Virus record (IMG/VR): IMGVR_UViG_2695420382_000010
Span: 1 to 7,627 of that record
From: a virus
Taxonomy: Duplodnaviria; Heunggongvirae; Uroviricota; Caudoviricetes
DNA: 7,627 bases
Reading direction: 5' to 3' (one strand)
Shown: one piece after another, positions 551 to 5,790 of the stretch
How the letters are laid out: each line of letters opens with the position of its first letter
How positions within the stretch are numbered: position 1 is the first letter of the stretch
The notes under the pieces: generated by a model
What the model saw: only the letters and a program-made list of their open reading frames with translations
Told to the model about the DNA's origin: nothing
Database searches by the model: none
Position numbers and translations under genes: made by a program

Positions 551-661
551 ATGCCCTCCATAGTAACCATGAAACAATAATACGATATGTACTTTTGGAA
601 TGCAAACAAAAAATACATCTTGTGCATGGATGGTTTTAGTACAGAGCGTAATAATAAGGAT
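551..661. promoter_or_regulatory. OR-type divergent control region between cro and cI (operators, PR and presumably PRM)
   Basis: 110-bp AT-rich spacer between divergent cro and cI starts. It contains the 19-mer at 577-595 that is shared (17/19) with the PL region, and an ACAAGATG core at 614-625 that recurs in OL at 2918-2925. Confidence 0.6.
577..605 (-). promoter_or_regulatory. PR-like sigma70 promoter for cro (-35 TTGCAT, 17-bp spacer, -10 TATTAT)
   Basis: On the minus strand, TTGCAT is the complement of 600-605, the spacer is 17 bp, and TATTAT is the complement of 577-582. The predicted leader of about 20 nt carries GGAGGG before the cro ATG. Confidence 0.5.
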
Positions 662-2751: not shown

Positions 2752-2753
2752 CG

Positions 2754-2780
2754 ACCCGGCCTCAGCGCCGGGTTTTCTTT
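2754..2780 (+). terminator. tIMM-like Rho-independent terminator ending the cI-rexA-rexB operon
   Basis: GC-rich hairpin ACCCGGC (2754-2760), loop CTCAGC, GCCGGGT (2767-2773), followed by the T-tract TTTTCTTT, starting 3 nt after the rexB stop. Confidence 0.8.
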
Positions 2781-2960
2781 GCCTCTCGAACGCCCACCTA
2801 AAACACATAACAAATTGTATTTATTGAAAAATTGATAGATACAACTTGCTAAACAGTGCAATTCTGATCCCTCACCTACCAAACAATGCACCCCTGCAAA
2901 AAATAAATCCATAAAATACAAGATGGTATAAAAAACCAACAACATTTAGAACATTTTGTA

Positions 2961-2989
2961 TTGACTCAATAAAGTACACATCGTACTAT
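2961..2989 (+). promoter_or_regulatory. PL-like sigma70 promoter (-35 TTGACT, 17-bp spacer, -10 TACTAT) with an overlapping operator
   Basis: TTGACT at 2961-2966 and TACTAT at 2984-2989. The downstream CATCAGCAGGACGCA resembles the lambda PL transcript start. The segment 2971-2989 is 17/19 identical to the PR spacer and -10 segment, suggesting OL1. Confidence 0.55.
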
Positions 2990-3035
2990 TTAGCCATCAG
3001 CAGGACGCAGGAAGCCAAACGGAACAGATTGGCAG

Positions 3036-3069
3036 GCTCTTTAACTTCGATGGGGCGCTGACAAAGCGC
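3036..3069 (+). promoter_or_regulatory. nutL: boxA plus P22-type boxB hairpin
   Basis: boxA GCTCTTTAA at 3036-3044 and boxB GCGC-TGACAAA-GCGC at 3055-3069, lying between PL and the N start. The boxB matches the P22 nutL type as I recall it. Confidence 0.7.
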
Positions 3070-3188
3070 AAACAGATATCAAACGAGATGGGTTTGGCGG
3101 TGATGTGAATTGCAGCTGCAACGACAGCAACCAGAAGATCAGCACCTGGCGCATCACCACCAAAGCCATTTCACATGAGGAAAACATC

Positions 3189-3497
3189 ATGACGGTAATC
3201 GTGTACGGAAAATCAACATTTGCAGGAAATGCCAAAACTCGCCGTCATGAGCGGCGCAGAAAGCTGGCTATCGAGCGTGATGCCATCTGCAACATCATCG
3301 ATTCGATCTTCGGCACAGACAGCGAGGAACCTGTTCAGAAAGACACGAGAAAGCGTTTAAGCCTTTCTGAAAAAGCAATATCACTCGGAAGCCTTCGCTG
3401 CAAGAAGGCAGATGAATACAGTGGAAGTATTTGCCTGCCAAACATAGCCATTTACGCGGCAGGCTACAGGAAATCCAAACAGCTGACAGCAAGATGA
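3189..3497 (+). CDS. N: N-type transcription antiterminator, P22 gene 24-like, 102 aa (arginine-rich motif near the N terminus)
   Basis: Track ORF 3105..3497, trimmed to Met 3189 with GAGGA at 3176-3180. The start MTVIVYGKSTFAGNAKTRRHERRRKLAIERD contains the arginine-rich boxB-binding motif and matches the P22 gp24 N terminus as I recall it. It is the first gene after PL and nutL. Confidence 0.85.
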   Translation: MTVIVYGKSTFAGNAKTRRHERRRKLAIERDAICNIIDSIFGTDSEEPVQKDTRKRLSLSEKAISLGSLRCKKADEYSGSICLPNIAIYAAGYRKSKQLTAR

Positions 3498-4026: not shown

Positions 4027-4101
4027 TACAAATAAGCACTGTGTATCCATTCCAACGAGTGAATACACGGAGCAATTTAAAGCGTAAATAAGGAGCACAC
4101 C

Positions 4102-4266
4102 ATGCAATATGCCATTGCAGGGTGGCCTGTTGCTGGCTGCCCTTCCGAATCTTTACTTGAACGAATCACCCGTAAATTACGTGACGGATGGAAACGCCTT
4201 ATCGACATACTTAATCAGCCAGGAGTCCCAAAGAATGGATCAAACACTTATGGCTATTCAGACTAA
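4102..4266 (+). CDS. cIII: CIII (inhibitor of FtsH-mediated CII degradation), 54 aa
   Basis: Not in the track because it is under 60 aa. ATG at 4102 with AGGAG at 4091-4095. It translates to MQYAIAGWPVAGCPSESLLERITRKLRDGWKRLIDILNQPGVPKNGSNTYGYSD, which matches lambda CIII as I recall it. Confidence 0.8.
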   Translation: MQYAIAGWPVAGCPSESLLERITRKLRDGWKRLIDILNQPGVPKNGSNTYGYSD

Positions 4267-5198: not shown

Positions 5199-5790
5199 GG
5201 TATCCGGCGAGAGATTTGGCAATTTAGTTGTTATTGGTGATGCAGGAATGCGTGGTACTCAAAGGTTGGTAAACTGTGTGTGTGACTGCGGAGTAGTTTG
5301 TGTTAAACAGCTTGGCAACCTCCGTTCAGGGCACACAAGAAGTTGTGGTTGCTCACGCTCATCTACAACAAAAGCAAGAAAAAACAAACATGGCATGTAT
5401 GGAACGCCAACATACAAGTCATGGTCTTCAATGTTAACAAGATGCTTCAATGAAAGAAATAGTAAATACAAACACTATGGAGGAAGAGGAATAACTGTTT
5501 GTGAACGGTGGCTGGACTTTAAATTATTTTTCGCTGATATGGGAAAAAGACCAGACGGAACTACATTGGGAAGAATTGATAACAATGGTAATTACGAACC
5601 ATCAAATTGCGAATGGCAGAAAAGTATCGAGCAAGCAAGAAATAAGAGTAATACCGTATTATTTAAATTCAATGGAGTGCTGGCAACAATTTCAGAGCAC
5701 TGCGAAAAAACTGGATTAAACCCAAGCACGGTAAGAAGCAGGATTTACACATATCATTGGTCTGTAGACAAGGCCTTATCAAAAGGATAA
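5185..5790 (+). CDS. Cys-rich putative nucleic-acid-binding / homing-endonuclease-like protein, about 201 aa (start ambiguous: 5170 or 5185)
   Basis: Track ORF 5170..5790. It overlaps the end of the upstream ATPase gene. It has an N-terminal Cys cluster (NCVCDCG...SGHTRSCGC), a central YKSW..M..RC.N....Y..YGGRGI.VCERW block and a GRIDNNGNYEPSNCEW block, which I recall from free-standing phage endonuclease-like genes, and a C-terminal HTH-like segment. Confidence 0.65.
   Translation: MRRLEVSGERFGNLVVIGDAGMRGTQRLVNCVCDCGVVCVKQLGNLRSGHTRSCGCSRSSTTKARKNKHGMYGTPTYKSWSSMLTRCFNERNSKYKHYGGRGITVCERWLDFKLFFADMGKRPDGTTLGRIDNNGNYEPSNCEWQKSIEQARNKSNTVLFKFNGVLATISEHCEKTGLNPSTVRSRIYTYHWSVDKALSKG

Follow-up and report, generated by a model that had tools for sequence, protein, structure and literature searches.

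The sequences shared by the PL and PR regions of the 7,627-nucleotide stretch of DNA analysed here (the window) very probably are parts of OR1-3 and OL1-3, the operators of a lambdoid prophage of the VT2-Sakai (Sp5)/Stx2-II immunity type, and they most likely represent putative binding sites for the repressor and the Cro protein of this prophage. The original prediction had proposed them as candidate operators of this immunity type, which is supported by the data presented below, although such sites are not new, being annotated for VT2-Sakai and for Stx1/Stx2-II phages. It had also stated that neither a clean 17-bp consensus nor a regular spacing could be derived. However, the twelve half-sites give W-A-R-T-A-C-A-n, and thus the 17-mer consensus WARTACA-nnn-TGTAYTW with the core TAC-N5-GTA, and the arrangement of the sites is orderly, with centre-to-centre distances of 33 and 26 bp in OR and of 25 and 33 bp in OL.

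Putative operators and predicted promoters of the immunity region

In the 7.6 kb of the window, a lambdoid prophage is represented by its immunity and early-left region. The minus strand carries cro (335-550; 71 amino acids, Pfam HTH_3) and the 5' part of a cII-like gene, and cI (668-1321; 217 amino acids, Pfam HTH_3 and Peptidase_S24) is located on the plus strand. Homologues of rexA (1453-2283) and rexB (2314-2751), an intrinsic terminator (2753-2774) and the N gene (3189-3497) follow; cIII, with an Rfam thermoregulator at 4089-4147, is found downstream of N. OR (578-653) lies between the divergent cI and cro genes, and OL (2914-2988) upstream of N.

The predicted PR promoter (577-605, minus strand) consists of a -35 hexamer TTGCAT (605-600), a 17-bp spacer and a -10 hexamer TATTAT (582-577); the promoter scan calls the neighbouring register, 606-577, with a spacer of 18 bp. 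For PL (2961-2989, plus strand), the scan predicts TTGACT (2961-2966) and TACTAT (2984-2989), separated by 17 bp. The intervals homologous to PR and PL in AP000422 are annotated as "putative major rightward promoter" and "putative major leftward promoter", respectively. PRM (627-655, plus strand; -35 TGGATG, 627-632; -10 AATAAT, 650-655) was assigned on the basis of its homologue, annotated in AP000422 and AP005153 as "putative maintenance promoter for cI", and its predicted start approximately coincides with the first ATG at 662. PRM is absent from the consensus promoter-scan calls, as would be expected of an activator-dependent promoter.

As claimed by the original prediction, the segment 2971-2989 (AAAGTACACATCGTACTAT) matches the reverse complement of 577-595 (AAAGTACATATCGTATTAT) at 17 of 19 positions, and the two 19-mers cover the spacer and the -10 hexamer of PL and PR, respectively. 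The lambda-like placement of OL1 and OR1 which it had deduced from this position is borne out, as the 19-mers contain OL1 (2972-2988) and OR1 (578-594). When both intergenic regions (551-667 and 2752-3188) were subjected to dinucleotide-preserving shuffling, a best 19-mer match of at least 17 was obtained in only 1 of 300 shuffles, the mode being 13-14; the observation thus is real, and chance is an unlikely explanation. The shared 8-mer ACAAGATG is likewise present at 2918-2925, within the near-palindrome ATAC-N6-GTAT at 2917-2930, and its complement CATCTTGT occurs in OR at 616-623. These cores occupy positions 5-12 of OL3 (2914-2930) and of OR2 (611-627), in the same register on opposite strands. 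Judging from the length of the motif, about 0.2 copies would be expected on both strands of the window; three were found, one of which, at 5437 within a coding region, is unrelated, and so the 8-mer by itself is weak evidence. Taken alone, this window provides moderately strong support. Among the proposed candidates, OL1, OR1 and parts of OL3 and OR2 hold up, whereas OL2 (2947-2963) and OR3 (637-653) had been missed, the former despite lying, like the other two OL sites, within the segment 2905-2995 that had been pointed out.

The coordinates of the six putative sites were transferred through alignments to the annotated operators of AP000422 and AP005153, with OR1, OR2, OR3 and OL2 being homologous to "putative operator" features of these records; positions given relative to transcription starts refer to predicted, not mapped, promoter starts. 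OR1 (578-594; TAATACGATATGTACTT) overlies the spacer and the -10 hexamer of PR, with its centre at approximately -16 of PR. OR2 (611-627; AAATACATCTTGTGCAT) adjoins the predicted -35 hexamer of PRM, its centre falling at about -43 relative to PRM and at about -49 relative to PR. OR3 (637-653; TAGTACAGAGCGTAATA) overlies the spacer and the -10 hexamer of the predicted PRM, with its centre at about -17 of this promoter. On the left side, OL1 (2972-2988; AAGTACACATCGTACTA) overlies the spacer and the -10 hexamer of PL (centre at about -16), OL2 (2947-2963; TAGAACATTTTGTATTG) overlaps the first three bases of the PL -35 hexamer (centre at about -41), and the centre of OL3 (2914-2930; AAATACAAGATGGTATA) falls at about -74 of PL. 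OR1, OR3 and OL1 contain the exact dyad TAC-N5-GTA, while OR2 and OL2 contain the inner dyad ACA-N3-TGT. In each of the 17-bp pseudo-palindromes, the two half-site cores are one helical turn apart. C6 is found in all 12 half-sites, A2 and A5 in 11 of 12 each, and T4 and A7 in 9 of 12 each.

Motif statistics and conservation among related prophages

A half-site matrix was derived from the six annotated sites of VT2-Sakai only, and the window was scanned with it as a symmetric 17-mer. The seven highest scores among the 7611 positions were those of OL1 (17.9 bits), OR1 (16.1 bits), OL2 (14.0 bits), OR3 (13.7 bits), a site at 2806-2822 (13.0 bits; see below), OR2 (12.2 bits) and OL3 (8.3 bits), in this order; the next background match scored 6.4 bits. 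Six sites of at least 12 bits compare with a mean of 0.064 in shuffled windows, and no match of at least 8 bits was found in the window outside the two regulatory regions. In an unbiased scan of the window alone, which covered every 3- and 4-mer dyad with a gap of between 1 and 11 and for which 551-667 (OR) and 2881-3000 (OL), a total of 237 bp, served as test regions, TAC-N5-GTA was the most enriched dyad, all three of its copies in the window being located within the test regions (uncorrected p = 3e-5; about 0.1 after correction for 3520 tests). The second dyad, ACA-N3-TGT, present at OR2 and OL2, represents the inner portion of this motif, and the scan did not reveal any other repeated dyad enriched in the OR and OL test regions.

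A fourth OR site between OR1 and OR2 was considered as well. The interval contains only a half-site-like AATGCAA (AATACAA in VT2-Sakai); since this half-site coincides with the -35 hexamer of PR and the other arm is unmatched, the candidate was rejected.

Relatives were taken from 80 viral contigs whose encoded cI is identical in its DNA-binding domain, from several named phages, and from a few genome contigs and one E. coli chromosome; the genome-contig scan contributed only four close loci, the other 65 hits being unrelated helix-turn-helix proteins of 30-50% identity, which were left out. In a megablast search of phage genomes, the cro-OR-cI segment was 94-99% identical to 64 phage records, including VT2-Sakai, the Stx1 and Stx2-II phages of strain Morioka V526, and phages 1717, 2851, YYZ-2008 and Nil2. 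Comparison of 32 distinct OR and 35 distinct OL sequences showed the core positions 2-6 and 12-16 of the sites to be variable in 7 of 60 columns, as against 18 of 30 columns for the central positions 7-11 and 64 of 100 non-operator intergenic columns (core versus non-operator, Fisher p = 4e-11, a value qualified by the close relationship of the sequences, due to which the columns are not independent events). Since several core columns overlap promoter hexamers, part of this conservation could be due to promoter function; the half-sites located in promoter spacers or outside of promoters are conserved equally strongly. The core columns of OR1 are invariant in the 32 OR variants, OR3 varies at positions 1 and 8 only, and variation in the OL2 core is confined to two columns with one variant each. 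OL1 invariably reads AAGTACA-nnnn-GTACTA among the relatives, with the centres ACATC, AAATC, ATATC, AACAT, AAATT and AAGTT. Conservation extends to a clade comprising L010, L157 and L158, whose cI and Cro proteins are about 85% and 80% identical to those encoded in the window, with the recognition helices kept. Its intergenic flanks are barely alignable, but the cores and the places of OR1, OR2, OR3, OL2 and OL1 are retained; OL3 is weak in this clade.

OR2 and OR3 are 26 bp apart in all of the about 89 loci compared, whereas OR1-OR2 ranges from 32 to 35 bp, due to an A-run. In the 82 loci in which OL was found, OL1-OL2 is 25 bp (26 bp in one case) and OL2-OL3 is 32-34 bp. The distance between OR1 and OL1 among the relatives ranges from 875 to 2448 bp, the OL-OR distance being 2.39 kb in the window.

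OL3, a candidate seventh site and alternative readings

The left half-site of OL3 matches the motif well, while the right half-site, degraded by a G at position 13, scores only -0.4 bits. In all of the 34 other OL variants, position 13 of OL3 is T instead of G, and the centres differ (AAAGCGTT, AATATGTT and others), so that the right arm is GTT and the N5 register is kept. The homologous OL3 sites of relatives accordingly read AAATACAAAGCGTTATA, AAATACAATATGTTATA and similar; in E. coli PEC41, the closest chromosome, OR is identical to that of the window and OL3 is AAATACAATATGTTATA. Judged from this comparison of sequences, both the ACAAGATG identity and the ATAC-N6-GTAT symmetry are confined to this window, the symmetry being off-register, and because the G at position 13 is peculiar to its OL3, this OL3 probably is a weakened site rather than a better palindrome.

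The site at 2806-2822 (CATAACAAATTGTATTT), which ranked fifth in the matrix scan, is located 108 bp upstream of OL3, at about -182 of PL and just past the rexB terminator. Its counterpart scores 9.1 bits in VT2-Sakai, PEC41, 2G7b and L009, is lost in ev207, and is absent from other lineages. An additional role as an auxiliary operator is possible, if uncertain.

Three other readings of the shared sequences were considered. The match of the 19-mers might reflect the similarity of two strong sigma-70 promoters, perhaps descended from one ancestral copy, and not be read by a repressor at all. The location of both 19-mers on a spacer and a -10 region is in line with this idea, the -10 hexamer accounting for 6 of the 19 bases; however, 12 of the 13 spacer bases match as well, and yet the spacer is not part of the sigma-70 consensus. 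Besides, the dyad recurs at OR2, OR3, OL2 and OL3, none of which is a spacer-plus--10 segment of PR or PL, and its cores are invariant among the relatives, whereas the -35 hexamer of PR (TTGCAT or TTGTAT) and the spacers between the sites vary. Similarity of promoters alone is therefore a highly improbable explanation. Equally little probability is assigned to the suggestion that the true unit is the 14-bp dyad ATAC-N6-GTAT rather than the TAC-N5-GTA 17-mer: although the two 4-bp arms of ATACAAGATGGTAT at 2917-2930 form a perfect dyad, the N6 gap fits none of the five other sites, OR1, OR3 and OL1 are exact N5 dyads, and GTT in place of GGT in all 34 other OL variants preserves the N5 register but removes the N6 dyad.

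The dyads might finally be bound by another protein, such as a host nucleoid protein or LexA, with the true cI operators being located elsewhere. The A+T-rich nature of the sites would agree with this, but a pattern search of OR and OL did not reveal any LexA box or any operator pattern of lambda, 434 or P22, and the dyad scan left no further enriched repeated dyad in these regions as a substitute. The sites moreover go together with this cI/Cro pair through different flanking modules, as reflected by the variable OR1-OL1 distance, and to our knowledge, every lambdoid phage studied has its cI/Cro operators exactly at such positions. We therefore regard binding of another protein as very unlikely too, and retain the assignment of the six sites as putative operators for cI and Cro.

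Repressor, Cro and comparison with known systems

The Cro protein is 100% identical to that of VT2-Sakai. The cI protein differs from VT2-Sakai cI in 5 of 217 residues (D45S, E46D, V59I, W110L and S209G), all outside residues 15-40, and its helix-turn-helix is identical; the identity of Cro and the unchanged helix-turn-helix of cI assign the prophage to the VT2-Sakai/Stx2-II immunity type. In AP000422 (VT2-Sakai) and AP005153, three 17-bp "putative operator" features are annotated in OR and three in OL, overlapping the putative PR, PRM and PL promoters. Six homologous 17-bp sites are thus common to the window, VT2-Sakai (Sp5; AP000422) and the Stx1 and Stx2-II phages of E. coli O157:H7 Morioka V526 (AP005153, AP005154); since they are homologous to deposited features, the sites are nothing unusual and, at the level of annotation, not new. 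Compared with VT2-Sakai, OR3 differs in its first base only, and OR1 (AAATACAATATGTACTT in VT2-Sakai) shows base changes outside the core, as do OR2, OL1 and OL2. OL3 has another centre and carries G at position 13 in the window only. The OR1-OR2 distance in VT2-Sakai is 32 bp instead of 33 bp, and the interval between cI and OL contains unrelated small genes there instead of the rexA and rexB homologues.

Two previous studies (PMC9803871, PMC10742460) employed the homologous sites as "the six operator sites", and the same 17-mers are listed in Table S1 of PMC10742460, which reported apparent Kd values of 3.7-6.4 uM for lambda CI on the VT2-Sakai sites. In both studies, only lambda CI was tested, and according to both, CI-DNA structures are lacking for these phages. 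Footprint or reporter work with the cognate cI or Cro was not found in the literature searched, which did not include several key older papers. Phage H-19B was reported to have four OR sites (PMC8065619). A possible identity of its immunity with that of the present prophage was pursued as a lead but dropped, since in the record of VT2-Sakai, H-19B is cited solely with regard to N, not to cI or cro.

The resemblance to lambda concerns the architecture, with three 17-bp pseudo-palindromes each at OR and OL, O1 located over the -10 region of PR or PL, OR2 at about -43, adjacent to the PRM -35 hexamer, and OR3 overlapping PRM. Residues 82-217 of cI, comprising the hinge and the C-terminal domain, match lambda repressor (3bdn) at all but one position, which presumably corresponds to an engineered mutation of the crystal construct. 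The N-terminal domain of cI aligns with the DNA-binding domain of lambda repressor; Q44 of lambda is kept, and E19 and E23 align with the acidic helix-2 residues E34 and D38 of lambda. However, the recognition helix of cI differs from that of lambda, GQSGVGALFNG. The lambda repressor possesses an N-terminal arm, formed by residues 1-6; as the alignment starts at residue 9 of cI, corresponding to residue 24 of lambda, there is no room for such an arm. The operators of lambda follow the consensus TATCACCGC, with which A2, A5 and C6 of the half-site coincide, but the half-site as a whole is WARTACA in the window and TATCACC in lambda. No TATCACCGCCAGTGGTA-type operator, as would be diagnostic of lambda immunity, was found in OR or OL, and only the hinge and the C-terminal domain of the repressor are those of lambda. 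The centre-to-centre distances likewise differ from the 24/23 bp and 24/20 bp of the lambda operators.

Unlike lambda Cro, which has another fold, Cro of this prophage is homologous to the repressor DNA-binding domain. It contains a helix-turn-helix, is 35% identical to the N-terminal domain of cI, and has the recognition helix TQGAIGHWESG, which is nearly that of cI; it also weakly matches P22 C2. In having an N-terminal repressor domain and a Cro protein which are homologous and carry near-identical recognition helices, the prophage resembles 434 and P22, in which homologous repressor and Cro helix-turn-helix proteins share one set of dyad operators, of 14 bp (ACAA-N6-TTGT) in 434 and of 18 bp in P22. 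Neither of these two operator patterns was found in the window.

By analogy, a cI dimer would bind to each of the 17-bp sites through its lambda-type helix-turn-helix, and Cro, with nearly the same helix, would recognize the same sites. From their positions, cI bound to OR1, OL1 and OL2 would be predicted to occlude PR and PL: OR1 and OL1 overlie the spacer and -10 region and OL2 overlaps the -35 hexamer of PL, so that their occupancy would block the cro-cII-O-P and N transcripts. Occupancy of OR2 by cI, at about -43 of PRM and thus at the activating position of the lambda paradigm, may activate PRM, whereas binding of Cro or of excess cI to OR3 would switch off PRM and hence cI. The C-terminal domain being identical to that of lambda cI, RecA-stimulated self-cleavage, pairwise cooperativity and looping between OL and OR would be expected. 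The matrix scores suggest an affinity order of OL1 > OR1 > OL2 > OR3 > OR2 > OL3.

The sites that lie close together are OL1 and OL2 (25 bp) and OR2 and OR3 (26 bp), not OR1 and OR2, despite the lambda-type cooperativity domain. Since the spacing is unlike that of lambda and the OR1-OR2 distance varies among relatives with the same DNA-binding domain, lambda-style cooperativity between OR1 and OR2 cannot simply be assumed. A lambda cooperativity and looping domain may thus act on differently spaced operators, and because different pairs are close, OR1-OR2 is longer by a full helical turn, and a seventh site may be present, the switch could be wired differently from that of lambda, a tentative proposal which we think is rather unlikely to be correct. 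In such a circuit, OR1 might act alone, contacts between OR2 and OR3 or between OL and OR might set the level of cI, and the distal site at 2806-2822 might aid looping.

The present analysis goes beyond the existing annotation in stating the consensus explicitly, in supporting the sites by statistics and by evolutionary comparison, and in providing data on spacing, a deviant OL3 and a possible seventh site. The consensus, the ranking by matrix score and the natural spacing variants provide a concrete basis for the design of binding experiments. The immunity type is common to VT2-Sakai and many Stx1- and Stx2-converting phages of E. coli O157:H7; contacts between repressor and operators control prophage induction, which in Stx phages means the release of toxin. 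If the alternative wiring were true, it could be relevant to the ease with which Stx prophages of the Sakai type are induced.

Repressor and predicted operators

The cI gene (668-1321) encodes a natural hybrid protein, in which a distinct N-terminal DNA-binding domain is joined to a lambda-type remainder. The hinge and the C-terminal domain are identical to those of lambda cI, whereas the DNA-binding domain lacks the N-terminal arm of the lambda repressor. Two in-frame ATG codons, at 662 and 668, are kept in all relatives. The predicted start of PRM at about 662 would result in a leaderless cI message; the spacing of AAGGA (656-660) fits ATG 668, for longer transcripts.

The arrangement of the predicted operators differs from that of lambda, yet the C-terminal domain of the repressor is lambda's. 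OR1 and OR2 are 33 bp apart in the window and 32 to 35 bp apart among the relatives (loci L001-L167), the variation in length originating from an A-run at about 605-612, and the OR2-OR3 distance of 26 bp is invariant among the same loci. On the OL side of the window, the distances are 25 bp (OL1-OL2) and 33 bp (OL2-OL3).

A seventh high-scoring match to the operator matrix, CATAACAAATTGTATTT (2806-2822; 13.0 bits), lies directly past the rexB terminator, 108 bp upstream of OL3. Its counterpart in VT2-Sakai, the E. coli chromosome PEC41, and the relatives 2G7b and L009 is weaker (9.1 bits); the site is lost in ev207, another relative, and absent from the other lineages compared. This predicted site could be an auxiliary or a vestigial operator.

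Rex homologues between cI and OL

Divergent homologues of RexA (1453-2283; Pfam E-value 1e-45) and RexB (2314-2751; E-value 8e-39) are encoded between cI and OL, the place occupied by rexA and rexB in lambda. RexA shares only 41% identity with its lambda counterpart, and 44% with the top phage record. A promoter-like site inside rexA (2220-2249; TTGCTA, 18 bp, TG-TATAAT; 10 of 12 consensus matches) has the same position as lambda PLIT, which drives rexB. None of the fetched relatives having this cI carries the Rex homologues; of the 82 relatives whose OL could be placed, 67 have it directly after cI.

Early left region and rarity of the mosaic

The nutL site comprises boxA GCTCTTTAA (3036-3044) and boxB GCGCTGACAAAGCGC (3055-3069). 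This boxB is of P22 type, and N (3189-3497) has the corresponding arginine-rich motif, GNAKTRRHERRRKLAIERD, likewise of P22 type. VT2-Sakai shares the immunity but has a different N. The N leader contains a long, very stable hairpin (3085-3172; arms at about 3085-3107 and 3150-3172; –45.9 kcal/mol, z = –7.0 for folded 3080-3195), which stops about 16 nt short of the N start codon and is similar to the lambda N-leader stem that RNase III processes. Further downstream, a Lambda_thermo element, the cIII thermoregulator (4089-4147; Rfam, 88.5 bits), is located at the start of the cIII gene (4102-4266; 54 aa).

The OL/nutL segment (2760-3190) was not found at ≥99% identity in 5426 complete E. coli genomes, the best being that of strain PEC41 (96.1%), whose OR is identical to that of the window. 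In the collections searched, this particular mosaic is thus a rare one.
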